NCBI GenBank assembly: GCA_963662405.2
Contig: CAXXKT010000001.1
Span: 416,001-480,000 of the forward strand
Reading direction: 5' to 3'
Length of the DNA: 64,000 bases
From: Syntrophales bacterium
Lineage (GTDB): Bacteria > Desulfobacterota > Syntrophia > Syntrophales > UBA2210
In this document: positions 3,934-29,577 of the stretch, piece after piece
Position numbering within the stretch: position 1 is the first letter of the stretch
Layout of the letters: every line of letters begins with the position of its first letter
Notes under the pieces: model-generated
What the model was told of the DNA's origin: nothing
Seen by the model: only the letters and a program-made list of their open reading frames with translations
Database searches by the model: none
Program-made: the position numbers and the translations under genes

Positions 3934-3947
3934 CTCTTCACCTCTCT

Positions 3948-6125: not shown

Positions 6126-6155
6126 ATCTTAATTGCACGTCATATCAGTTGTCAA
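6126..6155 (-). promoter_or_regulatory. Putative sigma70 promoter for ATPase operon 1
   Basis: TTGACA-N18-TAAGAT on the minus strand in the divergent intergenic region. Confidence 0.4.
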
Positions 6156-6658: not shown

Positions 6659-6690
6659 TCTATCTTTTTAAACACATCGAAATCACCCTT

Positions 6691-6720
6691 TCGTGTTTGC
6701 CCCTGCAGGGGTAAACGCGA
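6691..6720. repeat. Stable palindromic hairpin between dodecin and USP genes
   Basis: TCGTGTTTGCCCC-TGCA-GGGGTAAACGCGA; no U-tract. Confidence 0.6.
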
Positions 6721-6847
6721 GGCGGAGGTGTGTCTCGGAAGGGAGAACCTGCAACCATGACGGAACCATGAGGGATGGGAATCCGGTATCTCTGATCTGA
6801 ACCTTAGTATATCAGAGCGACTGCCGGAGAGCGGAAAGGAGGGAGCC

Positions 6848-7777: not shown

Positions 7778-7801
7778 GGGGCCATCGACAGGAGAACCGG
7801 T

Positions 7802-8110
7802 ATGGACGATACGATCACCCGTATCATGGAGATCGAGAAACGGTGCGCCGACGAGATCGAAGGGGCTCAGCAGGCGTCACGGCGGACGATCGAGGAGCAC
7901 CGGAAGGCCGTCGAGAAAGGGAAGGCGGAAGAGAACACCCGGATTGCCGGAGAGAATGAGGCTCGGCTGAAGGAGACGGTCGCGGAGGAACAGAAAAAGA
8001 TCGAAGCGGCATTTCACGAGGCGGAGGGCGATCTGGAGGAGCTCTTTCGGGATACATCATTAAAACGGGAGATACGGGAACGGATCGTCTCCATCCTGCT
8101 GGCGGATTGA
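7802..8110 (+). CDS. V/A-type ATPase subunit G/H-like (operon 2)
   Basis: 102-aa coiled coil at the head of the operon. Confidence 0.65.
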   Translation: MDDTITRIMEIEKRCADEIEGAQQASRRTIEEHRKAVEKGKAEENTRIAGENEARLKETVAEEQKKIEAAFHEAEGDLEELFRDTSLKREIRERIVSILLAD

Positions 8111-8116
8111 AAAACC

Positions 8117-9046
8117 ATGAGATACTATGCGGACGACAGCTACCTCCACGCGAGGATTTACGCCATGAGGAGCCGTCTCATCCCATCCGACGGGTACGCC
8201 CCGCTCCAGCGGGAGTACGAGGCCTCATATGCCGGCCCCCACGGGATGATCGAGGCAAAGGAGGGGACCTTCCGGGAGCAGATCGCCCCTATCATTCATT
8301 TGGCCGAGGCGACGGAGCGATACGCCCCCCTCTTTATCGCGTTTCTCCGCCGGTACGAGGCGAATAACGTGAAGCTCCTCCTGGCAAAGGCATTCGGGAG
8401 GCGATCCATCGAACAGTGGTACGATATCGGCCCCTACGCCACCCTCGATCGGGATCTCTTCGATGGTGATCCGGCCCCGGACGACCTGCAGGCGGCCCTG
8501 GCCGGGACCTACCTGGACGGGATATTCGAGGGAAGGGCAACCTACGAGCGGATCGAGGATCGCGTTGATATCCTCACCGCCCGGCACTTCTTTGACACGT
8601 CGGACGCCTTCCCCCCCGAGGGGCGGGAGGTCTTCCGGGATTTCATCCTCCGACGGCTCGCCGTCCTCATGGTCATCCGGCAGTGGCGGTTCCGGGTCAC
8701 TTACGGCTGGAGCGACGAGCGGATCTGGGCCTACCGGGACGAACTGGGAGCCCTCTTCGGGGAGACCGACTGGCCGCAGGTGAGGGAGCTCGTGGGGGTG
8801 CTCGTCCGGCGGCTCAGGGAGATGGGGGGGCAGACCCCGGGCCCGGCGGAGGCGGAGTCATTCCTCGAACGTTCCTATTACCGGTGGGTCGCGTCGATGT
8901 TTCACCGGGATTTCCACTCCGTCCACTGCGTGATGGCGTACCTGTGGCTCCTGGACTATCAGATACGGAACCTCTTGTGCATCATCGAGGGGATCAGGTT
9001 CGGCCTGTCCCCCGAGGCGATACTCGAAACGATCATCAGCGATTGA
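8117..9046 (+). CDS. V/A-type ATPase subunit C (operon 2)
   Basis: YLHARIYAMRSRL, YEANNVK and YQIRNL..IIEG motifs. Confidence 0.85.
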   Translation: MRYYADDSYLHARIYAMRSRLIPSDGYAPLQREYEASYAGPHGMIEAKEGTFREQIAPIIHLAEATERYAPLFIAFLRRYEANNVKLLLAKAFGRRSIEQWYDIGPYATLDRDLFDGDPAPDDLQAALAGTYLDGIFEGRATYERIEDRVDILTARHFFDTSDAFPPEGREVFRDFILRRLAVLMVIRQWRFRVTYGWSDERIWAYRDELGALFGETDWPQVRELVGVLVRRLREMGGQTPGPAEAESFLERSYYRWVASMFHRDFHSVHCVMAYLWLLDYQIRNLLCIIEGIRFGLSPEAILETIISD

Positions 9047-9054
9047 GGACGCCT

Positions 9055-10947
9055 ATGTTCGTCAAGTCCGATATCAGGAGGGTCTCCATCGCCCTCGAAC
9101 GGCGGTTCTACCACGAGGTCTACCGTGCTCTCGGCGAAGCGGGGATCATTCACCTGGCCCCCCCGCGGGACCGGGACGCCGTGATGGACGCGCCCCTGCG
9201 TGAGGAAGAGACACGGGTAAAAGAGATCCTCGCGGGGATCGAACATGCCTTGCAGACCCTTCATATCGAGCCGGGGGCGACCGCCGGGCACGCGATCGAT
9301 ACCGCTCGTGACGGGGCCTTCGCCTCGAAGGTGCAGCGGGAGCTTGAGCGCGTGGAACGGGTGCGTTCGCGGATTCATGAAACATTGGAAACGGCGGACC
9401 GGCGCGTGGAGTACCGCGCGGCCCTGGACCGGATGGGGATCGACCCGCCGGCCCTGCACGGGGCACGGCTGGTCCGGACGGTCTTCGGGACCGTGGCGGA
9501 GACCGAGTGGGAGCCGCCGACCGGCGAGCGATTCGTCGTTGCAAAGGCCAATAGCTACGTCTGCGGCGCCGCCCTTCCGGCAGATTTCCCCGCCATGCTT
9601 CAGTTTCTGAGGGGATACGGCTTTACGGACCATTCCAACGAGATCACCGGTATGTCCGTCACGGAACTGGAGTTTCGCGCGGAGACCCTGAAGGGGCGGC
9701 TCGCCACCCTCGATCGGTATCTGGTCAATCTGCGCAAGACGGTGGGGCCGACCCTGGCGGAGCTGTATGCCCCCTACCGGGAATACGGGGAGGTCTTCGC
9801 AGCGATGAAGCTCTCCCTCTTCTCCGCGAAGGCCCTTTTCATCGCGGGGTGGATGGACGCGAAGGACCGGGAGTGGCTCTTCGAGATCCTCCGGGGGATC
9901 TGCGGCGACCGCTTCATCGCCGTCGTCTCCGATCGGCGGGACCCCGATGCCCCGGTGCGCCTCATGAACAGCCGGCTCCTCAGGCCCTTCGAGCTCCTCG
10001 TGAAGACGATGGGGATGCCGGCGAACAGCGAGATCGACCCCACGCCCCTGACGGCCGTTACCTTCGTCGTCATGTTCGGCCTGATGTTCGGCGACCTCGG
10101 CCAGGGGATCGTCATCGCCCTCGGCGGCCTCCTCCTCCGGCGGATGGCGAAGATGCGAGGAGACCCGGAATCGACCATCGGCCAGGCCGGGGGGATCTTG
10201 GTCGCCTGCGGCCTCTCCGCCGCCGTCTGCGGCATCCTCTACGGCAGCGTCTTCTCGAACGAGCACCTCATCCCCGCGCTCCTCTTCCATCCCATCGAAA
10301 ATATCATGCCCCTCTTCGCCGTCACGATCCTTCTCGGGGTCCTCTTCATCAGCCTGGGACTCGGCGTCAACGTCCTCAACAACCTGATGAACGGGAACTA
10401 TACCGAGGCACTCCTCGAGAAGCGGGGGCTCGCCGTCTTCATCCTCTACGGCGCCGTCGTGATCCTTGCCGTGCGCTGCACCCTCACCGGGCAGGGACCC
10501 TCGCCGTGGGCGGTCGGCGCCTTCGTCCTCTTCCCCCTCGCGGTCTTCTCGCTCCGGGGCGTCCTCGGCCCGCTCCTTTTCAAGAGTCAAAAACCGCACA
10601 GCGCGGTCGAATACATCATCGAGACCTGCGTGGAGATCCTGGAGATCGGCCTGAGCATGCTGGCCAACACCGTCTCCTTCATCAGGGTCGGTGCCTTCGC
10701 CCTCTCCCACGCGGGTCTGAGCATCGTGACGTACACCCTCGCCGGGATCGTCGATCCGGCGATGCGCTCCGTGGGTGCCATCATTGTCATCATCGTGGGG
10801 AATGTCTTCATTATCGGCTTCGAATGCCTCATCTGTCTGATCCAGTCGATGCGGCTCGAGTACTACGAGTTCTTCAGCAAGTTTTTCAGGGGGGACGGGG
10901 TGGGCTTTGTCCCCTTCAGACTCAAGGCAACAAACCCGGAGGTGTAG
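9055..10947 (+). CDS. V/A-type ATPase subunit I (operon 2)
   Basis: EIDPTP, GLMFGDLGQG, SFIRVGAFALSH, QSMRLEYYEFF; start taken at MFVKS. Confidence 0.95.
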   Translation: MFVKSDIRRVSIALERRFYHEVYRALGEAGIIHLAPPRDRDAVMDAPLREEETRVKEILAGIEHALQTLHIEPGATAGHAIDTARDGAFASKVQRELERVERVRSRIHETLETADRRVEYRAALDRMGIDPPALHGARLVRTVFGTVAETEWEPPTGERFVVAKANSYVCGAALPADFPAMLQFLRGYGFTDHSNEITGMSVTELEFRAETLKGRLATLDRYLVNLRKTVGPTLAELYAPYREYGEVFAAMKLSLFSAKALFIAGWMDAKDREWLFEILRGICGDRFIAVVSDRRDPDAPVRLMNSRLLRPFELLVKTMGMPANSEIDPTPLTAVTFVVMFGLMFGDLGQGIVIALGGLLLRRMAKMRGDPESTIGQAGGILVACGLSAAVCGILYGSVFSNEHLIPALLFHPIENIMPLFAVTILLGVLFISLGLGVNVLNNLMNGNYTEALLEKRGLAVFILYGAVVILAVRCTLTGQGPSPWAVGAFVLFPLAVFSLRGVLGPLLFKSQKPHSAVEYIIETCVEILEIGLSMLANTVSFIRVGAFALSHAGLSIVTYTLAGIVDPAMRSVGAIIVIIVGNVFIIGFECLICLIQSMRLEYYEFFSKFFRGDGVGFVPFRLKATNPEV

Positions 10948-10948
10948 G

Positions 10949-11287
10949 ATGACCAGGAACAAAAAGGCTGTCATTTTTCTGTTGACGTGTCTCATCGTCG
11001 CCCCCTTTGTCATATTCCCCGCCGTGATGCTGGCGGCCGGCGATGAAGCGGCCGAGGCCGCCCTGGACGGGGGATGGGTAGGGATGGCGTACCTGTCCGC
11101 CGCCCTGGCCGTGGGGCTGGCCTGCATCGCGAGCGCCTTCGCCGTCGCCCGGATCGGTTCGGCGGGGATCGGCGCGATGAGCGAGAAGGAGGAGCTGACG
11201 GGGCGGATACTGATCTTCCTCGGTCTTGCCGAAGGGATCGCTATCTACGGCCTGATCATCGCGATCATGATCCTGAACAAGCTGTAG
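10949..11287 (+). CDS. V/A-type ATPase rotor subunit K, single hairpin plus N-terminal hydrophobic segment
   Basis: GLAEGIAIYG motif. Confidence 0.92.
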   Translation: MTRNKKAVIFLLTCLIVAPFVIFPAVMLAAGDEAAEAALDGGWVGMAYLSAALAVGLACIASAFAVARIGSAGIGAMSEKEELTGRILIFLGLAEGIAIYGLIIAIMILNKL

Positions 11288-11288
11288 C

Positions 11289-11597
11289 ATGAAGATATTT
11301 ATTATCGGTGACATCGATACGGTAAGCGCCTTCCGCCTCTCGGGGGTGGAAGGGGTGATCGCCGACAGGGAGAACGTCCCGGAACGCCTCGAAGAGGTGC
11401 TCCGGGGGGGAACGGCGGGGATCGTGATGGTGACGAGCGAACTCGCCGGGGACCTCCAGGAGCGGATCACGCAGATCAACCTCGCCCCGGAGGGGCCCGT
11501 CGTGATCGAGATCCCGGGTATCGACGAGCCTGAGGGATTCCGCCGGTCCGTCGTGGGGTACATCGCCGAGGCCCTCGGCATCTCCCTCGAATCGTAG
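11289..11597 (+). CDS. V/A-type ATPase subunit F (operon 2)
   Basis: MKIFIIGDIDTVSAFRLSGVEG..PVVIEIP. Confidence 0.92.
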   Translation: MKIFIIGDIDTVSAFRLSGVEGVIADRENVPERLEEVLRGGTAGIVMVTSELAGDLQERITQINLAPEGPVVIEIPGIDEPEGFRRSVVGYIAEALGISLES

Positions 11598-11610
11598 GAA
11601 AGGGGTCGCC

Positions 11611-12213
11611 ATGAAAGAGCCGCCGCTGGAAGAGTCGATCAGGAAGGAGGCCGAGGAGACCGTGCGCGCCGTCAGGGAACGGGAGGCCGCTGAGATCCGG
11701 GAAATGGACGAGTCCTGCGCCGCCGAGATTGAGGAATTTAAAAAGAAGACAGAGTCAGAGACCCGGGCGCGGATCGAGCAGGAACGATCCCGGCTTGAAA
11801 ACAAAGGCCTCCTGGAACGGAAAAAACTGAAACTGCGCGGCCTCGAAGCATTCATCGGCCGTATGGTGGAGGAGGCGGTGGGGACCATGCGGGACGACCC
11901 ACGGTATAAGGAATTCTTCCTGGACCGGGTGCGCGAGGCCGCCCATGAAATACAGGCCGGCATCGAGGTTTCCCTGCATACGGCAGACCTCCCCCTCGAA
12001 AAGGAGATCATGGCGGCCGCGGGGAAGACGGGGCGAAACCCCGACGTCGCGGTGCGCGCGGACCCGGCGATCCGGTGGGGAGGGTGCGCCATCAGCGACG
12101 GGGCAACGGGGCGCATCTTCAACAGCACCATTGAGCGGATCTACTACCGGCAATCGGCGACGATCCGCCGGGAGATCACGAAGATCCTGAACGAGAAGGG
12201 CTTCTCCTTCTAG
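11611..12213 (+). CDS. V/A-type ATPase subunit E (operon 2)
   Basis: Coiled coil plus GGC..NSTIE C-terminal motif. Confidence 0.85.
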   Translation: MKEPPLEESIRKEAEETVRAVREREAAEIREMDESCAAEIEEFKKKTESETRARIEQERSRLENKGLLERKKLKLRGLEAFIGRMVEEAVGTMRDDPRYKEFFLDRVREAAHEIQAGIEVSLHTADLPLEKEIMAAAGKTGRNPDVAVRADPAIRWGGCAISDGATGRIFNSTIERIYYRQSATIRREITKILNEKGFSF

Positions 12214-12230
12214 CTGACGGAGGCAGGGAC

Positions 12231-14003
12231 GTGGAAGAGATGCTGACAGGACGGGTGATATCGGTAAACGGCCCGATCGTCAAGGCGGCGGGCCTCAGGG
12301 GAATACGGATGTTCGACATCGCCGAGGTGGGGGCCGACCGGTTGATCGGCGAGGTGATCCGTCTGATCGGGGACATCACCGTCATCCAGGTGTACGAGGA
12401 CAACACGGGGCTGATGCCGGGAGACGAGGTGACTTCTTCCTGCCGCCCCCTGTCGGTCCTCCTGGGACCGGGTCTCATCGCGAACATCTACGACGGGATC
12501 CAGCGCCCCCTCGTCGGGATCTCCGAGGTCTGCGGCGCCTATATCCGCAAGGGGATCAAGCTCTCTCCCCTCGACACGAAGAAGAAATGGGAATTCAACC
12601 CTCTGATAAAGGCGGGGACCGCGGTGCGGGAGGGGGACATCCTTGGAGAAATCCCGGAGTCTCCACTCGTTACGCACCGGGTTCTCGTCCCCCCCGGCGT
12701 ATCCGGCACGCTGGCCGCAATCGTCGGGTCGGGGGAGTATACGATCGAGGATGAGCTCTACACCGTCGAGAACGGCGCCGCCCCCTACCAGGGAAAACTG
12801 GCCGCCTACTGGCCGGTCCGCAAACCGCGGCCGAGCCGGGGGAACAAGAAGCCCTTCATCCCCCTGATGACGGGGCAGCGGATCATCGACACCTTCTTCC
12901 CCATCGCCCGCGGAGGGACGGCAACCATCCCCGGCGGGTTCGGGACGGGAAAGACCATGACCCAGCACGCCCTGGCGAAGTGGTGCAACGCCGACATCAT
13001 CGTCTATATCGGGTGCGGGGAGCGGGGCAACGAGATGACCGACGTCCTGACAGACTTCCCGAAGCTGATCGACGAGCGCAACGGACGCCCCCTGATCGAG
13101 CGGACCGTGATGATCGCCAATACCTCGAACATGCCCGTCCCCGCCCGCGAGGTGAGCATCTACACCGGGGTGACCATCGCGGAGTACTACCGCGACATGG
13201 GGTACAGCGTGGCGGTGATGGCCGACTCCACCTCCCGGTGGGCGGAGGCCCTGCGGGAGCTCGCCAGCCGGCTCGGTGACATGCCGGCCGAGGAGGGTTT
13301 CCCTCCTTACCTGGCAACCCGCCTCGCCGAGTTCTACGAACGGGCGGGCCTCGTGGAGACCCTCTCCGGAACCGACGGCGATATCAGCATCATCGGCGCG
13401 GTATCCCCCCCCGGGGGGGACTTCTCGGAGCCCGTCACCCAGCACACCTCGCGCTTCGTGCGGTGCTTCTGGGCCCTGGACAAGATCCTCGCCGATGCCC
13501 GCCACTACCCCTCCATCAGCTGGATCGACAGCTACACCGAGTACCTCCACGACATCGAGGGGTGGTGGAAGGACCTGGACCCCGAGTGGCTCACGATCCG
13601 GGGGGAGGCGATGGGGATCCTCCTCGAAGACAACCGCCTCCAGCAGGTGGTAAAACTCGTCGGGAGCGACGCCATGCCCCCGGCCCAGCAGTTCATCCTC
13701 TTCGTGGCGGAGATGATCAAGAACGCCTTCCTCCAGCAGAACTCCTTCGACCCCGTCGACAAGTACTGCCCCCCGGAGAAACAGCTCAAGCTCCTCAAGG
13801 CGATCCTGGATCTGAACAAAAGAGGAGAGGAACTGGTGAAGGGCGGGATGAGCGTCAAGGAGATCGCCGCCCTCGATGTGGTGTCGGAGATGGTGCGGCT
13901 CAAGTCCGAGGTCCCCAACAAGGAGCTGGGCAGGATCGACGACTACCGGGAGCGGCTCGCCGCGGGGCTCGATTCGCTCAAAGAGAAAACGGGAGAGGTG
14001 TAG
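12231..14003 (+). CDS. V/A-type ATPase subunit A (operon 2)
   Basis: [17 protein letters not shown] and [12 protein letters not shown] motifs. Confidence 0.97.
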   Translation: MEEMLTGRVISVNGPIVKAAGLRGIRMFDIAEVGADRLIGEVIRLIGDITVIQVYEDNTGLMPGDEVTSSCRPLSVLLGPGLIANIYDGIQRPLVGISEVCGAYIRKGIKLSPLDTKKKWEFNPLIKAGTAVREGDILGEIPESPLVTHRVLVPPGVSGTLAAIVGSGEYTIEDELYTVENGAAPYQGKLAAYWPVRKPRPSRGNKKPFIPLMTGQRIIDTFFPIARGGTATIPGGFGTGKTMTQHALAKWCNADIIVYIGCGERGNEMTDVLTDFPKLIDERNGRPLIERTVMIANTSNMPVPAREVSIYTGVTIAEYYRDMGYSVAVMADSTSRWAEALRELASRLGDMPAEEGFPPYLATRLAEFYERAGLVETLSGTDGDISIIGAVSPPGGDFSEPVTQHTSRFVRCFWALDKILADARHYPSISWIDSYTEYLHDIEGWWKDLDPEWLTIRGEAMGILLEDNRLQQVVKLVGSDAMPPAQQFILFVAEMIKNAFLQQNSFDPVDKYCPPEKQLKLLKAILDLNKRGEELVKGGMSVKEIAALDVVSEMVRLKSEVPNKELGRIDDYRERLAAGLDSLKEKTGEV

Positions 14004-14006
14004 CCT

Positions 14007-15401
14007 ATGGCCGCTGAGATCGAATACACGAACCTGTCCGGGATCTCCGGCCCCCTGATCTTCGTCGAGGGGGTCAAGGGCGTCGGGTACGGCGAGATCG
14101 TGGAGATTCGGGACGAATCGTCCGAGGTGCGGATCGGCCAGACCCTCGAGGTGGACGAGGACCGCGCCATCGTCCAGGTCTTCGAGGGGACGAGCGGGCT
14201 CTCCGTCAAGGGGGCGCGGGTCACCTTCGTGGGGAGATCGCTCGAGATCCCCGTCCACCGCGACATGCTCGGCCGGGTCTTCGACGGGCTGGGGCGCCCC
14301 ACCGACGGCGCCCCCCCGGTGATCACCGACAACATGATGAACGTCAACGGCCTCCCCGTCAACCCCTGGAGCCGGGAGTACCCGCGCGACTTCATCCAGA
14401 CGGGGATCTCGGCCATCGACGGGATGAACACCCTGATCCGGGGGCAGAAGCTCCCCATCTTCTCCGGGAGCGGGATGCCCCACAACCTGATCGCCGCCCA
14501 GATCGCGCGGCAGGCCCGGATCCTCTCCTCGGAGGAGGAGTTTACCGTAATCTTCGCCGCCATGGGGGTCAAGTTCGACATGGCGCGCTTCTTCATCGAC
14601 TCCCTTGAGGAATCGGGGGTCCTCACGCATTCGGCCATATTCCTCTCCCTCGCCGACGCCCCCTCGATCGAACGCCTCATCACCCCCCGCGTCGCCCTGA
14701 CGCTGGCCGAGCACCTCGCCTTCGAGGAGGGGATGCACGTCCTCGTCATCATGACCGACATGACGAACTACTGCGAGTCCCTCCGCGAGCTGTCCAGCTC
14801 GCGGGGCGAGATCCCCTCCCGGAAGGGTTACCCCGGCTACCTCTACAGCGACCTCGCCGCGATCTACGAGCGCGCCGGGCGGCTCAAAGGAATGAACGGC
14901 TCGATCACGCAGGTCCCGATCCTCACCATGCCGAGCGACGACATCTCCCACCCCGTCCCCGACCTGACGGGGTACATCACCGAGGGGCAAATCGTCCTGG
15001 AGCGCGAACTTTTCAACAAGGGGATCTATCCCCCCATCGCCGGGCTCCCCTCCCTGTCGCGCCTGATGAAGGACGGGATCGGCGAGGGGCGGACGCGCAA
15101 GGACCACGCCCAGAACGCCGCCCAACTCTTCGCCTCCTACGCGAAGGTCAAACGGATCAGGGCCCTGGCGGCCATCGTTGGCGAGGAGGAGCTCTCCGAA
15201 CTGGACAAGATCTACCTGAAATTCGGGACCGCCTTCGAGGAGCGCTTCCTCCGGCAGGGGCCCGACGAGAACCGCTCGATCATCGAGACCCTCGACCTGG
15301 GGTGGCAGATGCTCTCCCTCCTCCCGAAGGACGAGCTGTACCGGGTCTCCATGGAGGAGATCCAGCGCTACTACATACCGCAGCAGGAGGCCAGTGGATA
15401 A
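14007..15401 (+). CDS. V/A-type ATPase subunit B
   Basis: [33 protein letters not shown] motifs. Confidence 0.97.
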
Positions 15402-16024
15402 TGCCGGCGATCGATATCCCCCCCACCAAATCGTCCCTGCGCAGGCTCAAGGAGGACCTCGCCTTCGCCTACGAGGGGTACGACCTCCTCAACCAGAAGC
15501 GCGAGATCCTCGCCATCGAGATCATGCGACACATCGGCGAGATCCGGAAGATGGAGGCCGCCCTCGCGGGGGTCCTCGGCGAACTGTACGCGGCCTACCG
15601 TAAGGCGGCCGTCGAAATGGGATCGGACACGATCACCCGGAAGAGCTGTTCAGAGAAACGGTCCTATTTCTTCCACATGGAATTCACGAAACTGATGGGG
15701 CTCCGGCTCCCGGTGATCAGACTCTCCCCCAAGCGCCCCCGGATCACCGCCACCCTGCCGGGGACGACCGTCGCCTACGATGAGGCGAAGGAAAAATCGC
15801 GCGCGGCCCTCGAGGCCCTCGCCGAGTACGCCACCATCACCAAGGCGATCATGATGCTCTCACGGGAACTGAAGAAGGTCCAGCGGCGGGTCAACGCCCT
15901 CGAGAAGATCTTCATCCCCCAGCACGAAGAGGCGAAGAAGTACATCTCCGACCGGATCGAGGAGATGGAACGGGAAGAGATCTTCGTCAAGAAGCTGATC
16001 AGGCAGCGGGTGGAGGGGGAGTGA
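15401..16024 (+). CDS. V/A-type ATPase subunit D
   Basis: PTKSSL..GYDLL..KR and QRRVNALE motifs; start at MPAID. Confidence 0.93.
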   Translation: MPAIDIPPTKSSLRRLKEDLAFAYEGYDLLNQKREILAIEIMRHIGEIRKMEAALAGVLGELYAAYRKAAVEMGSDTITRKSCSEKRSYFFHMEFTKLMGLRLPVIRLSPKRPRITATLPGTTVAYDEAKEKSRAALEALAEYATITKAIMMLSRELKKVQRRVNALEKIFIPQHEEAKKYISDRIEEMEREEIFVKKLIRQRVEGE

Positions 16025-16082
16025 AGGATTATATGCTATCAGGAGATAAAGACTCTTTCATATCAAAAATTTTAGAGCTTCG

Positions 16083-16490
16083 CTAAGTTTGGACAACAAA
16101 GTCCCCAACCTGTACCTCTTCAAGCTTAAGCAAGAAAGTATTTCCTGGAGTGATCGTTTCTGTAACCGTCTCTGGCTGAACAAAGGTACTAAACAAATCC
16201 AATCCTTTTCGAGTTCGCTCCTTTACTATTTCTTTAGTGTCAGGGTGCTTCCCATAACCACATGATTTTAGGGTGCTGATCTTTTCTTGTACGTGTGTGG
16301 CTTCGGCTTTGCCTTTGACTATTTCAAGTTTTTCTAATTCCTCTTTTGTTTCTGGATCAACAATTGTTTCACCCAGACCGATAATAATAAACTTGTCGCC
16401 TTGATTTATGCCCCCGTTTCTTCCCTTATTAATAACAACGGTATAAGGATCAACTACCTTTAAAACCTTTGCAATATATTTGTCAGGCAT
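16083..16490 (-). CDS. AT-rich hypothetical protein, small beta-barrel resembling the FlgT C-terminal domain
   Basis: VVINKG..GINQGDKF..I.DPET.EEL pattern; SD GAGGAG; start overlaps the upstream stop. Confidence 0.7.
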   Translation of the reverse strand: MPDKYIAKVLKVVDPYTVVINKGRNGGINQGDKFIIIGLGETIVDPETKEELEKLEIVKGKAEATHVQEKISTLKSCGYGKHPDTKEIVKERTRKGLDLFSTFVQPETVTETITPGNTFLLKLEEVQVGDFVVQT

Positions 16491-17007
16491 TATTCTCCTC
16501 CTGTTGATCAAGTTCTGAAAGAATACTAAATGGTATGACTGGTCTGATTATAATATTGTTCAACTGGGACATAATGGAAGATATTGAAGCCTCGTCGATC
16601 AACTCCTTAATAATCTTTATTTGTATAAGTTTTTCTTGTACGTGATGTACAACGCCCACCAGAGCGACTCTTTCAACACCGTCTTCTACCATGTAACATC
16701 CAACAACAATGTTGTTAAGAAAATTTTCATTTTTCCTAATGATGAGTATTTTCTCTTTGTTAAGAAATTTAATGGGAGATTCTTGGCTGGGCACAAGCTT
16801 TCTCGATTGCCAAATATCAAAAATTACTTTCAGAAGGATAAAACAAGCAGAAAGCAATAATAACAATGTAAAAAGAAGCCATTTAATTGAAATTTGGGTA
16901 TTAATATCTATGAATAGTTGCGTAATTCCGGAAAGAAATCCAATAACACCCAAGGTGATTGAAAGACCTGATAAACTAAAAAAATGTTTCTTTATTTCTT
17001 CACGCAT
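16483..17007 (-). CDS. AT-rich hypothetical membrane protein with two N-terminal TM segments
   Basis: Long ORF in AT-rich DNA, translationally coupled to the 16083 gene. Confidence 0.7.
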   Translation of the reverse strand: MREEIKKHFFSLSGLSITLGVIGFLSGITQLFIDINTQISIKWLLFTLLLLLSACFILLKVIFDIWQSRKLVPSQESPIKFLNKEKILIIRKNENFLNNIVVGCYMVEDGVERVALVGVVHHVQEKLIQIKIIKELIDEASISSIMSQLNNIIIRPVIPFSILSELDQQEENNA

Positions 17008-17078
17008 GCTTACTTTAAACCCTAGCAAGTAGTCTAAACTAGAGGCGTTTCCCGTATTAATTTACAACACATTCCCTA

Positions 17079-17257
17079 TCACAACACACAAAAGCCCCAT
17101 CGCTCGGGTTCGAGTAACGGGGCTTTTCGCAATCAGACCATACGCGCTCCTTTGTGTTTGAGGTGCGGGCCGGACAGGTAAAGCTAACAAAAAACAAGTT
17201 CGTAATGAAATCGAAGGGAAGGATACCTCCCCGGGGGATTCCGGTCAAGGATTTAAT
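17079..17257 (-). repeat. ~178-bp promoter-leader-terminator repeat, copy 1
   Basis: Aligns over its full length with 18638, 20016 and 21294. Confidence 0.97.
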
Positions 17258-17273
17258 TACAGCCCGAGGCATC

Positions 17274-17298
17274 AAAAAAGGAACCATGGGCCTTTTTT
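17274..17298. terminator. Hairpin terminator after the APC permease
   Basis: AAAAAAGG..CCTTTTTT. Confidence 0.5.
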
Positions 17299-17302
17299 CT
17301 CC

Positions 17303-18566
17303 TCACCTATGGTGGCCCTCCGTACGTACATGGCGAAGCAGGATCGGGCGCCCGAACATGGCGATGATTACCAGGAGACCGAAGCGGGTCAGTTTGGATC
17401 AGGCGAATAATCAGGGCAACCGATGCGGAGGCGCTGGCCAGCGCGCCAAACCCTGTGAAGACCCGCGCACCCACCCGTTCCCGAAACGCGAGGCCGCATA
17501 CGACGGTAAAAGTGAACAGAAATGCGAGGCTGGCAGCTTCAACGAGGGTGGTGAGCGCCCCGAAAACGGAGAGGATCGCCGCCAGCGCGCCGAGTACTAT
17601 CACCGCCCGGTTCGGTATGCCTGCCTTGTTCTTGTGATCGAGGGCGGCCGGCAACTCACTGTCTTCCGCAACCTCATAGACGAGCCGCGCTGTTGCAAAG
17701 AGCGTCGAATTGATGGCCGATCCGGTAGAGAACGCCGCGGCAATCGTCACAATGACGAGGCCGGCGGTCCCGAGTGCCTGCCGGCCCGCGATGGCAAGAG
17801 CCACTTCCTGGTGCTGCATAACCTGGTCCGCCCCGATCAGCATCACCGTCCCCAGCGCGACCACGATGTACACACCGATCACGGCAATGATGGCCGACAG
17901 CACCGCGAGCGGGAGGGTTTTCCGCGGGTTATCGATATCATCATAATCGTAGGTCAGCAGCTGAAAACCCTCATAGGCCATAAACACGGAGGCCGCGCCG
18001 AATAACGCCGCGCCGATCCCCGTGTCCGGCACGTTCCGGGAGAGCATCGGCGGGTCCCACTGGGCAAGCCCCCACCCCGCCAGCCCCACAAGAACGACTA
18101 TCTTGAACCACACGAGAAAGACCTCGACACCGCCGGCTTCACCGACGCCGCGCAGATTCAAGCAAATGAACGCAATCAGGATGGCAACGGCGGCCGCGCG
18201 CGGGAACCACGGTCCCAGACCGGCAACATACCCGAGGTACTGCCCGAAGGTGGAGGCGTATACCGCGTTTGTCAGCACATACCCGACGATGAGCACCCAC
18301 GAAAGGCTGCCGGCGGCCCCCTCCGCGTTGATCTCGCGGAGAAACGTGAACGCGCCTCCCCCTTCGCCGTAGTAATCGGCCAGTTTTACGTAGCTGTATC
18401 CCGTGGCCAGGGCGATGAGGCCGGCAGCCAGGAAACTGAGCCATGTCAATGCGCCGGCGATTCCGACAACGACGCCGAGTGTGGAAAAGATGCCGCCGCC
18501 GATCATACCGCCGACGGCCATCGACCATGTGGCGTTGAAATTAAGCTTGGTTTGAGGCTGATTCAT
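17303..18566 (-). CDS. APC family amino acid permease, frameshift near the C-terminus
   Basis: GGMIGGGIF and FMAYEGF motifs; last TM helix GLLVIIAMFGRPILL continues in another frame to a TGA at 17303. Confidence 0.9.
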
Positions 18567-18637
18567 GGTAAATTAGGGACACTTCCCTATTTTTTACAAA
18601 TTTCTTTTTATCTGTTTTGGCCTCTCAGCCATCCCCG

Positions 18638-18813
18638 TCACAAAACACAAAAGCCCCATCGCTCGGGTTCGAGTAATGGGGCTTTTCGCAGTCAGACCAT
18701 ACGCGCTCCCTTTTGTGTATGAGGTGCGGGCCGGATGGGTAAAACTAAAAAAGTTTGTAATGAAATCAAAAGAAAGGATACCTCCCCCCGAGGATTCCGG
18801 TCAAGGATTTTAT
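18638..18813 (-). repeat. ~178-bp repeat, copy 2
   Basis: Direct alignment with copy 1. Confidence 0.97.
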
Positions 18814-18874
18814 CGCGGACCGGGGTGTCGGTTCCGGAGCGCAACGGGTTCCATCGAATCGTTCCGACAATCCT

Positions 18875-19936
18875 TCACTGTTTGTCCAGCAACCCATCAT
18901 CGAGTATCTGCTGGAAATGGTCTTTCACGGTCTGCTCGACGGGGATATACGACATGCCCAGATCTGTCTTGCTGTAAGAGCTATCGAGTCTGATATGAAT
19001 CCCGACATTTCTGCTCGCAAATTTCCGCGTGTAGCCCATCACCGGGGCAATGAGCCAGAACAGGAATTTGGGGGCCTGTCTCCGGGGAAACGGATACCGG
19101 TCTCCAAAATGTTTTCGAAGGATATTCGCTATATCGAGAAGCGATACTTCTTCACTCACGACGATGTGCCGCCCGCTCGCTTCCGGGGTGTACCCCGCCT
19201 TGACGTGGGCGGACGCCACGTCACGCACATCAACGATACAACTGTACAATTCCGGAACCCCGGTTTTGTAGATACCATTGCCAAAGAGGATCATGGTGTT
19301 GATGCTCATGGAGTCTTTCCTCTTCGACAGAGAAGGGCCAAGGATCCATCCGGGGTTGATCGTCAGCAGATCCCATTGCTCCTGTTCCGCGGCGAGAGCC
19401 CAGGCTTCTCTTTCCGCGATTGTCTTTGAATAGTTATAGGGCTGGTGGTCGGCACTGCTCGTGACGTTCCATTCCTTTTCAGTGAGTATGCCCTCCGGGG
19501 CCAGCGCCATGTCGGCATTGTCGCCGTATATCGCCACGACACTGCTGGTGAGCACCACCCGCTTCATCGTCGGGGTTCTTTGCGCCGATTCGAGGACATT
19601 GCGTGTCCCCTCTCTGGCCGGTCGTATCAATTCTTCTCCAGGATTCTTGATTCCGGTTATGAAGTAGGGTGAGGCGGTGTGCATCACCAGCTCGCACCCT
19701 CGCATCGGTTCATCGAAACTTCCCGGATTCAGAAGATCCGCCTTGAACAACGTCAACTGCCCGGTCGCTGTTTCCGCCAAGGCTTTCAGATGTTCGATCT
19801 TTTGCATATCCGAAGGGTCGCGTACCGTTGCGTGAACAGGGGTTCCCTCTTCCAGCAAGATCTTGATTATCCAGGAAGCCACGTAACCCGTACCCCCCGT
19901 AACCAATACCGGTTTGGTCTTATCGATTTCGCGCAT
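18875..19936 (-). CDS. NAD-dependent epimerase/dehydratase (aldehyde reductase/dihydroflavonol reductase-like extended SDR)
   Basis: TGGTGYVA, HTASP and YNYSK motifs; start MREID after SD AAGGAGG. Confidence 0.92.
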   Translation of the reverse strand: MREIDKTKPVLVTGGTGYVASWIIKILLEEGTPVHATVRDPSDMQKIEHLKALAETATGQLTLFKADLLNPGSFDEPMRGCELVMHTASPYFITGIKNPGEELIRPAREGTRNVLESAQRTPTMKRVVLTSSVVAIYGDNADMALAPEGILTEKEWNVTSSADHQPYNYSKTIAEREAWALAAEQEQWDLLTINPGWILGPSLSKRKDSMSINTMILFGNGIYKTGVPELYSCIVDVRDVASAHVKAGYTPEASGRHIVVSEEVSLLDIANILRKHFGDRYPFPRRQAPKFLFWLIAPVMGYTRKFASRNVGIHIRLDSSYSKTDLGMSYIPVEQTVKDHFQQILDDGLLDKQ

Positions 19937-20015
19937 GACACCCTCCTTATCTATCCTCGGAAACGCAGGTCTCCTCTCGAGTATTGGACAGGTTTCTCTT
20001 TTTCCGCCTTTACAA

Positions 20016-20192
20016 TCACAAAACACAAAAGCCCCATCGCTCGGTTCGAGTAACGGGGCTTTTCGCAATCAGACCATACGCGCTCCTTTTATGTATCAGG
20101 TGCGGGCCGGACAGGTACAGCTAACAAACAAGCTCGTAATGAAATCAAAGGGAAGGATACCTCCCTGGGGGGATTCCGGTCAAGGATTTTAT
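20016..20192 (-). repeat. ~178-bp repeat, copy 3
   Basis: Direct alignment with copy 1. Confidence 0.97.
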
Positions 20193-20415
20193 TGAAAGGG
20201 CGGGGTGCTCATAGGTTTCAGGCGGCACCGGGAGGTGGGGATCGATCGCCTGTCTGAACGAGAGGGTTGAGGGACGCCAGGCAGATCTTTCGGACAGCAT
20301 GAGGAGCTGTTTGCGGAGTTGATGCCGGTCGTATCCGCCCTCCTTGCCATACCATCCAAGTGGGGGTCAATGACTCTGTGGTGTTGATCGAGCTTGCCTA
20401 TGAGGTTCTGAGGTT

Positions 20416-20448
20416 AAAAAAACTCCGGCGAGCCGCTGCCCGCCGGAG
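20416..20448 (-). terminator. Intrinsic terminator of the 20516 gene
   Basis: CTCCGGCG..CGCCGGAG followed by T7 on the minus strand. Confidence 0.7.
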
Positions 20449-20515
20449 CGAGAAGATCCACTGACGTAACGAAGTAAAAAAAACGGCGTTGGTGACGAAA
20501 TGTCCTGACAGGCCT

Positions 20516-21097
20516 TTAGCTTACAGGTTTCTTGTCCTGAATTTTCCCCATCCGTTTTCCCAGCCAGTCTTTCAGCCTGTCAACAAGAGAAGGCTTTTTG
20601 AACGTGAGCTTTGTTTGCGCCGTCTTATCGGAACTCATGGACGTGACTTTGGCGGTATAGACACCAGCCGGAATAGTCGGTTGGGTAATGACAACAAACT
20701 GATTATATTTCCCGTCATCGGCATACGTGCCGCTGACGTTCCCTTTCAGGATTCCGGTGACCTTCGCGAGGGGGCCTATCGGGGCGGTAAATTGACCGGC
20801 GGCATCGACTTTTCCGTCAGCTACCACCACCTCGGTTTCATCAGGGCCAAAGAGCGTTACGAATACGGAATCTTCAGGCACGAATCCCGACCCTCCGAAT
20901 ACAATCTTTTGCTTCATCAATGTAGCAGCACCGAGACTGACGCATTCGGGGTTCACAATCAATTGAGGTCCCGTAATCTCAGGATCAAAGGTTTGTGGCC
21001 CGGCCGTACACCCGGTAAGCAGAAGGCCCCCTGTTACCCCCCATAACACTACCAGAAACAAAAACGCCAAAACCCTGCTTTTTTGAATGCTCAACAT
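20516..21097 (-). CDS. Putative lipoprotein with beta-rich domain, function unknown
   Basis: Signal peptide with lipobox LLTGC. Confidence 0.75.
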   Translation of the reverse strand: MLSIQKSRVLAFLFLVVLWGVTGGLLLTGCTAGPQTFDPEITGPQLIVNPECVSLGAATLMKQKIVFGGSGFVPEDSVFVTLFGPDETEVVVADGKVDAAGQFTAPIGPLAKVTGILKGNVSGTYADDGKYNQFVVITQPTIPAGVYTAKVTSMSSDKTAQTKLTFKKPSLVDRLKDWLGKRMGKIQDKKPVS

Positions 21098-21293
21098 GTA
21101 AAGTCCCCCCCTGAGTTTTCAATTTATTATAGCATGGTGATGTAAGATGTGGTGCTCTTGTCGGCATGTGGCATTTCTACCGTAGGAACAGTATATTTTC
21201 TCGCGCAATATTTTTCAAGAGAAAATCATCGCTTTCGGATGAAATAGCGACAGCTCCCTCTGTATGGGACAATAAAAATTTGAAGTACAAGCT

Positions 21294-21471
21294 TCACACG
21301 ACACAAAAGTCCCATCGCTCGGTTCGAGAAACGGGCTTTTCGCAATCAGGCCATAGGCGTTCCTTTTTGTTTGAAGTGCGGGCCGGACAGATACAGCCAG
21401 CAATAAAATAAGTTCGTAATGAAATCAAAAGGAAGGGTACCTCCCCGGGGGATGCCGGTCAAGGGCTTTAT
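21294..21471 (-). repeat. ~178-bp repeat, copy 4 (more diverged)
   Basis: Alignment with more substitutions than copies 1-3. Confidence 0.95.
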
Positions 21472-21633
21472 CGAGGTGCATTTCGTATGGTGTATCAGTG
21501 ACCGAAGGGAAAAACCAGTTTCCCGCGAAGGACGAACCAACTGATTTCCCCGAGATTTTGACACTTCACACTAAATATCTTTGTCCTGCCATCCGATAGT
21601 GCTATAAAGCCCCGCAGTACAAGGAGGGGATAC

Positions 21634-25242: not shown

Positions 25243-25978
25243 GGGTCTTGACTAGAACAGCGGTTTATTTTTGAAGTTCTTTAACAACAATTTATAGATA
25301 TCGGTGTTACGGTTGTTGAACCGGAACTCACATTCCTTGAGATGCAGGTAAAAGGTTGATTGTGGAATACCATGGAACTTCATCAGCCTCCGTTTTGCGA
25401 ATGACCAGAAGGATTCAATGCCATTGATGTGGCTTTTCCCCCTGGCAAATTCATTGGCTCCGTGATGAACACGGTAATGCTTTTTGTATCCCAAGTCAAC
25501 CAAACCATCATAGCCTCTCCAACTATCTGAATGTATGACACTATTCGGTTCAACTTTGCCCCTGATAATGGCCTGGAGAGTCTTCCTGGCGCAATCGGGA
25601 ACGATTTCGGTATAGACACTGCCTTTTCGTTGCAGGATACCGAATACAGGGGTTTTTCTCCCGGCCCCACGGCCTCGTTTCCCTTTGATACGTTTTGCAC
25701 CGAAATATGATTCGTCAACCTCGATTTCACCCTGAAATGGTGATTCTTCTTCGCACAGATCAGCTATACGTTGACGAATCAAAGACAGATATCGATTCAC
25801 CGTATTTCTATTGAGTTTTGTTAAAAGAGCGATGGTTTGAGCATCCAAATCGAAGGCAAAATACTTCACGATCTCTCTAAATTTTGCCTCTGAAATTTTG
25901 GAATTTTTTACATACTTGTTACTTATTGACATGACTAGACTCTTAACATATTTCCGTGTGCTGTTCTAGTCAAGACCC
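25243..25978 (-). mobile_element. IS1595-family (IS1016-like) insertion sequence, 736 bp
   Basis: 19-bp perfect terminal IR GGGTCTTGACTAGAACAGC; 8-bp target duplication TAAAACAA at 25235-25242 and 25979-25986. Confidence 0.96.
25252..25932 (-). CDS. IS1595-family transposase
   Basis: EIEVDESYFG, HSDSWRGY, HINGIESFWS and KECEFRFN motifs. Confidence 0.97.
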   Translation of the reverse strand: MSISNKYVKNSKISEAKFREIVKYFAFDLDAQTIALLTKLNRNTVNRYLSLIRQRIADLCEEESPFQGEIEVDESYFGAKRIKGKRGRGAGRKTPVFGILQRKGSVYTEIVPDCARKTLQAIIRGKVEPNSVIHSDSWRGYDGLVDLGYKKHYRVHHGANEFARGKSHINGIESFWSFAKRRLMKFHGIPQSTFYLHLKECEFRFNNRNTDIYKLLLKNFKNKPLF

Positions 25979-26045
25979 TAAAACAAAAGCCCCGTTGCTC
26001 ATTTCGAGAAACGGGGCTCTTGTAATCGGTCCGTATGTGCTCGTT
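25979..26045 (-). repeat. Partial degenerate copy 5 of the repeat (terminator half); terminates the Sel1 gene
   Basis: ACAAAAGCCCCgttGCTC..TTCGAGaAACGGGGCTcTTgtAATC aligns with the repeat terminator. Confidence 0.8.
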
Positions 26046-26916: not shown

Positions 26917-27810
26917 TTACTTCGCACCACCGCCGCTGCTGCTGTTATGGACGAGATAGCGATTACCGCTGTCCGTCACCACATAGAAATTATGGCTGTC
27001 ATCGACCTGCATATTATACAGCGTGTGGCGTGCCCGATGGTAATCGACTGAAACAATCGTGACCATACAACCGTCTATCTGCACCTCGTCACCTTCCCGC
27101 AGGTCGCGCACCCTCTTCCAGCCGGTGTCGCTGAGGAGCCGTTCGGTTCCGGTAGCGGAAAGCTCTCCGTTGATCGTATAGAGATGATTTCCCTCGACGG
27201 TGTAGACATCGACCACCGGTTTGATTACCGTAGTCTGATACCCGATATCGTAGGTCAGGACCCGATCACCGGGGCGGATCTGTTCAAAGGGTTTTGCCGA
27301 TCCGTCCGCCATGGTCACGAGCGTATCGGGCAGAAAACACCCCCCCGACTGGGAGATAATCGTCTGTCTCTCCTGCTCCAACCGGTCGACTTTCTTCTTG
27401 AGCCGTTCAACTTCCTTCTCGGTGGCGGCTGCTTCGGTATAGTGCCGATTTGCCGCATCTTCATATGTCTCTTTGCCATCTCCCTTGAACCATCCCCGAC
27501 TTTGGTCGTTCTTGACATCATTTATGACCCCGAGGTGCTGTTCCTTGACCGCGTGCGCCTCCAGGCCGCTAATGGTCTCTCGAGTGTTTTCGATGTCTCT
27601 CTCGACTTCTTTCACTGTTCGCGGCGTAACAGGAGCAGGGGGCGGGGTCTCAGGCTTGGGGGCCGGCTTTGCATACCTATAACCCCTTGACGGCCCCGGG
27701 GACAGACAGAATGCGACAGCATCCTGAATTGAGAATACGATTGCTGTGCCGATCACCAGAACGACAAACATTGACTGGAGCATGTTTTCTCTTTTCATAA
27801 TATCCCTCAA
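26917..27810 (-). CDS. Secreted protein with a C-terminal Hint (bacterial intein-like) domain
   Basis: Signal peptide, Pro-rich linker, coiled coil, then GGCFLPDTLV...YNMQVDDSHNFYV...LVHNS. Confidence 0.9.
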   Translation of the reverse strand: MRDIMKRENMLQSMFVVLVIGTAIVFSIQDAVAFCLSPGPSRGYRYAKPAPKPETPPPAPVTPRTVKEVERDIENTRETISGLEAHAVKEQHLGVINDVKNDQSRGWFKGDGKETYEDAANRHYTEAAATEKEVERLKKKVDRLEQERQTIISQSGGCFLPDTLVTMADGSAKPFEQIRPGDRVLTYDIGYQTTVIKPVVDVYTVEGNHLYTINGELSATGTERLLSDTGWKRVRDLREGDEVQIDGCMVTIVSVDYHRARHTLYNMQVDDSHNFYVVTDSGNRYLVHNSSSGGGAK

Positions 27811-27983: not shown

Positions 27984-28454
27984 TCAACCGTGTGCATCAG
28001 TAAGATCGTCTATGGTCCACCACCTGACATCATCGATTCCCCGGACCATCTGATAGGCACCGACGGTGACACGAAAGAGGGCACAGCCAGTCGACCGAAG
28101 AAAGGATTCGAGATCGGGGTGCCTCTCCAGGTGCGCGTTGAGAGCGGTGTCCAGCCCTGCATCCGCGATCTCTTCCGCGCGGCCAAGCGCGGTGATGACG
28201 AAGCCTTCCCGCTGACCCGGGATGGACATGCCCCGGCCATCGATAAAGAGGGCTACTTTGGTGTTGCCGATCAGATTGCGGTACTTGCGTGTGCCGCGAT
28301 AGGTGGCGAAGAGGAGGTGCCGACAGTTTCCGGACGGTGTGATGGCTACCAGGCTCGCATGGGGCTGTCCGTCGTGCTCCGTCGTCAGAACGGCAAATCC
28401 TGCCGCCTGGAGCACCTTTTCGATCAACTGGATCATATCGGGTTGATGTTTCAT
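27984..28454 (-). CDS. Pyridoxamine 5'-phosphate oxidase-like flavin-binding protein
   Basis: AVLTT..GQPHASLV, T.R.TRKYRNL..N.KVAL motifs. Confidence 0.85.
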   Translation of the reverse strand: MKHQPDMIQLIEKVLQAAGFAVLTTEHDGQPHASLVAITPSGNCRHLLFATYRGTRKYRNLIGNTKVALFIDGRGMSIPGQREGFVITALGRAEEIADAGLDTALNAHLERHPDLESFLRSTGCALFRVTVGAYQMVRGIDDVRWWTIDDLTDAHG

Positions 28455-28565
28455 GTCGGGTTCAACCTGATGATGGCCCGGCGACGTTTCTGTTGCCGGA
28501 GGAAAACCGTTGAGCAGATACTTACTGATAATAAACAGAGAAACACACCAAACGGACTATACTGA

Positions 28566-28594
28566 AGGATACCCTTCCGACTTATCACGGTCAA
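28566..28594 (-). promoter_or_regulatory. Sigma70 promoter with the same hexamers as the repeat promoter
   Basis: TTGACC-N17-TATCCT. Confidence 0.6.
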
Positions 28595-28604
28595 GAATTA
28601 TGTG

Positions 28605-28695
28605 TTTAATTAGGGACAGCGCCCATTTTTGTAAATGCCTAAATTAAATCTTATTTTCTGTGATAGGAGAAAAATGGGCGCTGTCCCTAATTAAA
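28605..28695. repeat. 91-bp element with 26-bp perfect inverted repeats (MITE/REP-like)
   Basis: TTTAATTAGGGACAGCGCCCATTTTT ... AAAAATGGGCGCTGTCCCTAATTAAA. Confidence 0.85.
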
Positions 28696-28701
28696 TCCTA
28701 A

Positions 28702-29577
28702 TTAAATATCGACCCCCAAGAACGTACGCAGCAGATAACCGATGAAGAAGCTGAACGCGGCGACGCTCAGGCTCAGGCCCGCCATTTCAATAAAGCGTTT
28801 TCTGAATGATTCGTCTTTGGCAACAGAAATGTAATAATTAAAAAGGGCGATGATCAGAACGGCACCGGCAAGCGTACATCCCAGACAGAGGTAATAGTCG
28901 TTGAGGACCAGATAGGGCAGGATGAGAAGCAGCACGGTAATCAGATAGGCAACGCCCGTGTAAGTCGATGCCCTCAAGGGATTCTTGGTCGTTTCTTCCG
29001 CCTTTGTGGAGAGGTATTCTGAGGCCCCCATCGAGAGGGCGGCGGCGATGCCGGTAATCGAACCGGTCAGGGCGATCAGCTTCGTGTTCTGCAGGGCCAG
29101 GGTCAGCCCCGCCAGCGCACCGGTCAGTTCAACAAGGGCGTCGTTGAGACCCAGGACCATGGAACCGGTATAGCGCAGCCGCTCCTCGTCCAAGAGTTCA
29201 AGGAGGGCGGTCTCGTGCTGGTTCTCCTCACGCATAATGATCTCAGCCTCCGGGATCTCGGCCCGGAGACGCTCATAGCTCTCCTGGGCACCCTGCTCCC
29301 CCTGCTCCATCAGCTTGACGCCGAAGGTAAACCCGAATAGGCGGCTGATCCAGTAGTATTTCCACATCTTCCACCGGTCGGGCGCTATATCCTCTTGGGT
29401 ATAGGTGCGCCAGGTGTGGTAATGCCGGAGTTCGTCGTTGGAGATATCTTCCAGTACCCGCCGGTTCGCGGGTTCGCGGACCCGCTCGGCCAGCCTTTTG
29501 TAAATATAATGTTCGGTGATTTCGTTCCGTTGAAAGGTCAGGACCTTCCGGCGAATTTCCGCGCTGACAGCCATCAT
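28702..29577 (-). CDS. Ferritin/rubrerythrin-like domain fused to a VIT1/CCC1 transporter
   Basis: E..EH, DE.RH, EE..H di-iron motifs; VLGLNDALVE..ALSMGASEYLS. Confidence 0.9.
   Translation of the reverse strand: MMAVSAEIRRKVLTFQRNEITEHYIYKRLAERVREPANRRVLEDISNDELRHYHTWRTYTQEDIAPDRWKMWKYYWISRLFGFTFGVKLMEQGEQGAQESYERLRAEIPEAEIIMREENQHETALLELLDEERLRYTGSMVLGLNDALVELTGALAGLTLALQNTKLIALTGSITGIAAALSMGASEYLSTKAEETTKNPLRASTYTGVAYLITVLLLILPYLVLNDYYLCLGCTLAGAVLIIALFNYYISVAKDESFRKRFIEMAGLSLSVAAFSFFIGYLLRTFLGVDI

Follow-up and report, generated by a model that had tools for sequence, protein, structure and literature searches.

A 64,000-nucleotide stretch of contig CAXXKT010000001.1 from a Syntrophales bacterium (assembly GCA_963662405.2, positions 416,001 to 480,000; hereafter the window) carries, next to a V-type ATPase subunit D gene (ntpD), a real and apparently undescribed shuffled gene array built on a regulatory repeat, so far found in one family. 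Four co-oriented, full-length repeats of ~180 bp (R1–R4) alternate with unrelated genes, all on the minus strand, and no other full-length copy exists in the whole 3.8-Mb genome, which is 100% complete. This arrangement had been noticed in a preliminary description made from the letters of the window alone, and is confirmed by the coordinates below and by pairwise identities of 79–91% (R1-R3 91%, R1-R4 86%, R1-R2 85%, R2-R3 85%, R3-R4 84%, R2-R4 79%). To that description the fourth copy also looked more diverged than the first three, but R4 and R2 stand at much the same distance from R1 and R3. The spacers measure 1054, 1379, 1200 and 1099 bp. Throughout, G numbers denote genomes of the family (G000 is this genome), L numbers loci of relatives and metagenomes, X numbers sequencing runs and C1–C3 contigs of this genome.

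R1, 17079..17258, minus strand: -35 box 17248-17243, -10 box 17225-17220, Shine-Dalgarno sequence 17151-17147, micro-open reading frame (micro-ORF) 17141-17133, hairpin 17127-17090.
R2, 18638..18815, minus strand: -35 box 18804-18799, -10 box 18780-18775, micro-ORF 18700-18692, hairpin 18686-18649.
R3, 20016..20194, minus strand: -35 box 20183-20178, -10 box 20159-20154, micro-ORF 20077-20069, hairpin 20063-20027.
R4, 21294..21473, minus strand: -35 box 21462-21457, altered -10 box 21439-21434, micro-ORF 21354-21346, hairpin 21340-21305.

Along the cargo strand, the repeat consists of a sigma70-type promoter, a leader of ~70 nt, a Shine-Dalgarno sequence, the micro-ORF, 5 nt and a terminator-like hairpin. 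The promoter boxes of R1–R3 are TTGACC and TATCCT, 17–18 nt apart, with 9 of 12 consensus matches each; the -10 box is altered in R4, and the upstream part of the promoter is AT-rich. Counted over the whole region, promoter matches were not in excess over shuffles. We aligned 20 array-type copies from this and related loci and found the -35 core to be invariant in all 20. The micro-ORF, ATG-GTC-TGA (with GCC as the middle codon in R4), consists of a start, one codon and a stop, and is intact in 19 of the 20 copies. Its stop lies 5 nt before the main hairpin, which lies ~90 nt downstream of the -10 box, is 36–38 nt long and ends in a T-tract. This hairpin is 96% paired over the 20 copies, the changes being mostly wobble pairs plus one compensatory pair, a level reached by 8 of 500 shuffles. 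Two further structures were considered: (i) a 5' hairpin first read in R1–R4, which was rejected as it is unpaired in most other copies; and (ii) a G-rich/C-rich hairpin over the -10 box, which is possible but shows no covariation and pairs equally well in slid registers.

The terminator stands between the promoter and the cargo. Therefore, from the order promoter, terminator, gene, the repeat is predicted to be a leader or attenuator and not a plain expression module. The earlier proposal that each cassette carries its own expression module thus survives in part: promoter- and terminator-like elements are present, but the terminator precedes the cargo, and the gene of 193 residues between R3 and R4 has a promoter match of its own (21218-21190) that is better than the repeat's, together with a predicted terminator (20449-20422). 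In several truncated copies in relatives, the promoter is kept and joined straight to the gene.

The repeat resembles no catalogued element that we searched for. At gathering score, Rfam found nothing in the array; relaxing the threshold to E<=10 brought up only three chance-level matches (E 1.8–9.8), all outside the repeats. Traits of miniature inverted-repeat transposable elements (MITEs) or insertion sequence (IS) ends were likewise missing in the alignments, where the repeat ends do not pair and the flanks share no common duplication; the idea that the repeats are the ends of a nearby IS was rejected. The same end-pairing check and an attC scan agree with the reported lack of attC ends and terminal inverted repeats. 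Tyrosine recombinases give 24 matches in the genome, none of them in the window, and no large serine recombinase was found in the genome; this is in keeping with the lack of an integrase first stated for the window, which does contain an IS1595-family transposase. Phage, plasmid and viral collections, including phage records and viral contigs, held no match to the repeat.

Comparison with related loci, which belong to different species, demonstrates at the sequence level that the cargo has been shuffled across species. The genes concerned and their boundary are:

15401..16024, plus strand: ntpD (Pfam ATP-synt_D), the convergent boundary of the array.
16083..17007, minus strand: cargo 1, an AT-rich pair of open reading frames (ORFs) of 135 and 174 residues (GC content 39% and 33%).
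17307..18566, minus strand: cargo 2, an APC-type amino-acid permease (Pfam AA_permease_2; GC 62%), 89% identical in amino acids to the G005 copy.
18571..18592, no strand: a short GGGA..CCC palindrome; its family is also found flanking a Y1 (IS200/RAYT-like) transposase at another place in the genome.
18875..19936, minus strand: cargo 3, an extended short-chain dehydrogenase/reductase (SDR) of the epimerase/dehydratase family (GC 54%), with other neighbours in G005, L064 and L068.
20195..20226, minus strand: a 32-nt relic of the end of a PNPOx unit in front of R3, 97% identical to L065; a different gene precedes R3 here.
20516..21218, minus strand: cargo 4, a probable lipoprotein of 193 residues (GC 51%), so named from its N-terminus, with no Pfam match.
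27984..29577, minus strand: PNPOx-family and VIT1-family genes, which belong to this variable region; relatives have them within repeat arrays or next to them.

The base composition of the cargo genes differs from segment to segment (GC 33% to 62%), as had been remarked. Six genes recur with different neighbours, namely the SDR, PNPOx, a 231-residue ORF, a DsrE-like gene, PAP2 and an acyltransferase. The unit R2-SDR-R3 is shared with L068 over 1599 nt at 80% identity; homology stops at the outer edges of the repeats and the genes on both sides differ. At L064, homology runs through the SDR and R2 (651 nt, 92%) and stops at the 3' end of the repeat, where other cargo follows; the SDR protein is 97% identical over the 135 residues present. 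G005 keeps the order SDR-permease, with 3' halves of the repeat between the genes. Depending on the locus, PNPOx is preceded by VIT1, the 231-residue ORF, another SDR or the DsrE-like gene, while the 231-residue ORF precedes PNPOx, a repeat with an AlbA-RecG gene, or a repeat with an SDR. The partners of the PAP2, acyltransferase and DsrE-like genes also differ between loci. Enzymes and transporters are found among the cargo of the various loci, as are toxin-antitoxin genes and two candidate defence proteins. The gene shuffling first suspected from the window is thus borne out by relatives that differ in both content and order at this locus. The repeats themselves look mosaic: the distance matrices of three segments correlate only at 0.37–0.40, and a test for clustering of incompatibilities gave p=0.022 (61 sites, 20 copies). 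In most segments, copies within one array are each other's nearest relatives, and the full-length type is confined to arrays.

Array-type copies, full-length or 5' halves, occur in 8 of 38 family genomes (G000, G001, G004, G005, G007, G021, G025 and G029). They also occur in the 10 metagenome loci examined, of which two pairs overlap or are near-identical and one duplicates a G005 locus (near-duplicates among the loci compared are L062/L066 and L069/G005). Named records that show the pattern and truly match the profile carry the labels Syntrophales, Syntrophaceae or Deltaproteobacteria; three pattern matches outside Syntrophales (L073, L074, L077) fail the profile and were taken as chance. Strict patterns match 4 of 339 and 16 of 339 genomes of the order, and the first of them misses 4 of the 8 known carriers, so restriction to the family is not established by these counts. 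In run X2, contigs agree with the array at nearly every letter and end at the repeats or within them, a match that is not independent if X2 is the source sample, as is possible. Joints in run X5 linking the ntpD end to repeats lie on short-sided contigs, probably of other organisms, and were left out.

Where do the arrays sit? Repeats often lie between tRNA-Phe and the V-ATPase D gene. The first repeat directly follows tRNA-Phe in G021, G029, G005, G004 and L068, and follows tRNA-Phe-VIT1-PNPOx in L062; a separate check at tRNA-Phe in 10 genomes gave one profile match, two degenerate look-alikes recognized by eye and seven without. In this genome, tRNA-Phe is ~190 kb away from the array. The repeat points at ntpD in 4 of 14 loci with a full-length orthologue and in L062/L066. 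The G029 locus is nearly empty, holding tRNA-Phe and the 5' half of a repeat against the ntpD stop. Growth of the array from the ATPase side, as the preliminary description had suggested, finds no support: tRNA-Phe is the more constant anchor, a 5' half abuts the ntpD stop in G029, and there is no gradient of divergence. The full-length orthologues (>50% identity, in 14 of 38 family genomes) were counted for the ntpD of the second ATPase operon of the window, and their surroundings are varied. Duplicates of the ntpD 3' part with variable edges are found in five relatives (L021, L024, L026, L027, L046, L047). The ntpD 3' end as a fixed att site was rejected, since the relic edges vary and none lies in this array.

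The 3' 65 nt of the repeats also match many other sites of the genome. A profile of this part, whose counts include the window's own repeat copies, returned 70 rows, of which 46 cover both the -35 position and the hairpin and 53 include the 3' part. This dispersed family has a different 5' part in which TTGACA is 98–100% conserved. Start-codon-stop is present in 40 of 55 profile matches genome-wide, with a variable middle codon. For 44 of 53 leaders, the ORF that follows runs in the same direction, and the 1 kb downstream has a mean GC of 47% vs 54% for the genome; some leaders directly follow tRNA genes. Reading the family as the tail of a coding gene was rejected, there being no common open frame. 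The fifth, partial copy of the preliminary description exists, but as a 3' part only and of the dispersed kind:

25252..25932, minus strand: IS1595-family transposase (Pfam DDE_Tnp_IS1595), with ends repeated genome-wide, directly behind the T-tract of the partial copy.
25980..26045, minus strand: partial copy 5, the 3' third or half only, with a degenerate micro-ORF and hairpin; it belongs to the dispersed-family type, as a 3' half.

By the preliminary description's own standard, copies scattered singly, like a MITE, would speak against an array, and this is in part what is seen: the full-length type is found in arrays only, but its 3' third is dispersed. Other observations concern these leaders. 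The integron integrase gene of this genome is preceded by a different leader of like build (Shine-Dalgarno, start, one codon, stop, hairpin; C1:2211748-2211835). Five copies of one IS110 element (C1:158697, 164181, 305949, 1415929; C2:343425) share the target CACCT, and in four of the five this target is the 5' edge of a dispersed-family leader. Units of 60–210 nt starting with CAGGAAG stand upstream of many leaders in mix-and-match order (e.g., C1:316358-316687).

What is the mechanism of gene exchange? We think it somewhat probable that the repeat is a portable transcription leader turned recombination anchor, with RecA-type homologous exchange acting in an insertion hot spot; both the recombination route and the regulatory role are what we infer. 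Incoming DNA or excised circles would recombine by RecA through repeats that are 80–90% identical. Often, one end of the exchange would lie in a repeat or in a gene next to the array, and the other would join illegitimately; genes would thereby be added, lost and reordered without a dedicated integrase. One-sided illegitimate exchange is a known concept, and the genome encodes both recA and comEC. Each captured gene would land behind a ready promoter. A ribosome on the micro-ORF might suppress termination at the hairpin, and read-through into the cargo would then depend on translation; one report describes terminators that are repressed just behind a stop codon (PMC4824070).

Several observations weigh against this reading. 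Only 28 of 93 internal alignment ends from 18 array loci lie in or within 30 nt of a repeat, where coverage predicts ~16%; the 93 ends are not independent, and most non-repeat ends are gene ends. The R3 junction lies ~32 nt outside the repeat, at the PNPOx relic. Adjacencies have also changed without an intervening repeat (the 231-residue ORF to PNPOx; DsrE to three partners). The lipoprotein unit carries its own promoter and terminator, and its homologue in G005 sits elsewhere, without a repeat. Relics of the ntpD end and palindromes like repetitive extragenic palindromes (REPs) mark other routes of insertion, and 10 of the 14 full-length ntpD loci have no repeat in the DNA fetched. The micro-ORF stop is 84–91% conserved per base, no more than adjacent bases, and of 28 repeat tails 4, each from a relative, are followed by an attI-like match. 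The circular gene-plus-repeat junctions that had been suggested were not seen, as no circle or excision joint occurs at repeats in the X2 contigs, in which rare variants are dropped by assembly. Since the compared loci come from different species, they do not give the timing of events. The R3 relic, the lipoprotein unit, the non-repeat ends and the relics and palindromes speak against pure repeat-to-repeat exchange; therefore, homologous plus one-sided illegitimate exchange is favoured.

An integrase acting in trans competes seriously as an explanation of how the locus came about, but less so of how it stands today. The arrays would be decayed integron platforms without an integrase, in which the repeat is a promoter module before attI, IntI inserts or exchanges in trans at attI (attI x attI or attI x secondary site), and attI has since been lost here, a history that we rate as unlikely. 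It draws on an intact integron integrase (C1:2211990-2212934, 1.8 Mb away) and on an attI-like profile, seeded on the site upstream of the first attC beside that integrase, which finds 16 genome sites: 5 follow a leader by no more than 120 nt, and 4 others by 132–134 nt. Relatives' arrays have 5 such sites; matches stand behind the 4 repeat tails just mentioned and precede the SDR in G005 as well as in L068. IntI1 is reported to recombine attI x attI at low frequency (PMC7790495). Against this, the array in the window has no attI-like site, and the attI label itself comes from position and core. Nor do repeats or cassette ends carry attC-like hairpins: one in-gene match falls in the array vs 18 rows at the true integron, whose attC sites the scan recovers, loose as it is (it rings in 27 of 60 random segments). 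Finally, the preliminary description had proposed to look for a recombinase that co-occurs with the repeat; an integron integrase was found in 4 of 8 repeat carriers vs 8 of 30 other genomes, counts that are limited by incomplete genomes, and is thus not obligate.

Alternatively, the repeats may do no recombining at all. Passive accretion in an insertion hot spot, with IS, RAYT-like or other illegitimate events bringing in a common leader, seems to us quite unlikely, even though it would account for the ntpD 3'-end relics with variable edges in five relatives, the REP-like palindromes that lie behind R1 and R2 and flank one L062 cargo, the IS elements of the region and the alignment ends, most of which lie outside repeats. 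It poorly explains a repeat-SDR-repeat unit with new flanks, and equally the mosaic copies, the nearest kinship within arrays and the confinement of the full-length type to them. Very improbable, in our judgement, is an undescribed site-specific recombinase, or a bridge-type IS110 enzyme, that acts in trans and recognizes a short core of the repeat family. The dispersed family does have a sharp 5' edge at the CACCT core, the target of 4 of 5 IS110 copies, and this core also occurs mid-repeat, with a few truncations or insertions near it. But truncated copies end at many profile positions (66, 84, 90, 91, 106, 111, 113, 115, 116 and 156), and the arrays inspected have no recombinase beside them, except IS transposases in single loci.

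A bolder version of the leader-as-anchor reading is conceivable, although we regard it as rather doubtful: a chromosomal, integrase-independent capture array in which one selected repeat would be both recombination handle and translation-coupled on/off leader, with related leaders across the genome feeding genes in through the shared 3' part, and some copies bearing an integron attI. Ordered, shuffled bacterial arrays are normally thought to need a site-specific enzyme and its sites, as in integrons and pdif modules. This locus displays integron-like shuffling around repeats that bear promoters. Should that hold, integron finders would overlook arrays of this sort, and syntrophic bacteria would have, in regulatory repeats, a route of gene capture. 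Present in ~50 copies, the start-codon-stop leader is also an undescribed candidate regulator of accessory genes.

How does the array compare with known systems? Integrase-less integron arrays are called CALIN. Like integrons and CALIN, the array strings together unrelated single genes that all face one way and vary in order; an attI-like site follows the repeat in some relatives, and an integron integrase lies elsewhere in the genome. Unlike them, it has neither attC nor attI, every unit has its own predicted promoter, and the repeat, which is no end-paired palindrome, stands ahead of the gene. Ribosome-coupled attenuators with short leader ORFs, such as bmrB and vmlR, likewise place a promoter, a short ORF and a terminator before a gene. 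Here, in contrast, the ORF is a start, one codon and a stop, and dozens of copies precede unrelated accessory genes. Additive genomic islands anchored on tRNA genes and minimal mobile elements form another such group: the region is variable, lies near tRNA-Phe in relatives, is bounded by conserved genes and has recA and comEC in the genome. Unlike islands, the repeat loci have no island integrase, and their internal repeats are promoter leaders rather than duplicates of a tRNA end.

The closest described system appears to be that of the PeSL cassettes of T4-like phages, in which, according to two reports, repeats of ~100 bp made of a promoter and a stem-loop lie on either side of variable ORFs and form mini-circles by recombination (PMC2839356, PMC4122927). 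The earlier remark that the array matches no described system thus needs amending, as PMC2839356 offers an analogue and a precedent for shuffling by promoter repeats. Both have a repeated intergenic sigma70-type promoter with a stem-loop flanking unrelated accessory ORFs in variable regions, with genes gained, lost and swapped at the repeats and no dedicated integrase nearby. They differ in host (a bacterial chromosome vs a lytic phage), in length (~180 bp vs ~100 bp) and in layout, the main hairpin lying ~90 nt downstream of the -10 box behind the micro-ORF whereas the PeSL stem-loop is at the promoter. Mini-circles and promoter activity are demonstrated for PeSL, whereas the array is known from its sequence. 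We therefore read the resemblance as one of appearance and would not count the array as a member. In the literature searched, which left out most subscription papers, we found neither this element nor a chromosomal counterpart described, and the design only for phages.

Cargo 1 had no PADLOC match, and its ORF pair gave only a sub-threshold match to FlgT_C. For the 174-residue ORF, a search of 338 other genomes of the order gave no close match and four marginal ones (E 2e-4 to 8e-4), and a protein-atlas search returned unnamed clusters only. The last ~27 residues of the permease (17307-17390) are in a frame that differs from that of relatives; an X5 contig has extra letters at this point, consistent with a small deletion here. 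One pair of 21-nt palindromes lies in the window at 28605-28695. On C3:116981-154109, such pairs stand between genes of 1–3 kb and to either side of a Y1 transposase (C3:146004-146339); this may be a second repeat-punctuated array. To the left of the array, positions 1-16024 hold two back-to-back V-type ATPase operons, the second (7802-16024) with a GC content of ~64%. On the other side, 26917-27810 encodes a secreted-looking protein of 297 residues with a C-terminal Hint domain and no toxin tail, adjoining a Sel1/peptidoglycan-binding protein. A thiamine pyrophosphate (TPP) riboswitch at 63830-63933 lies upstream of thiamine genes.

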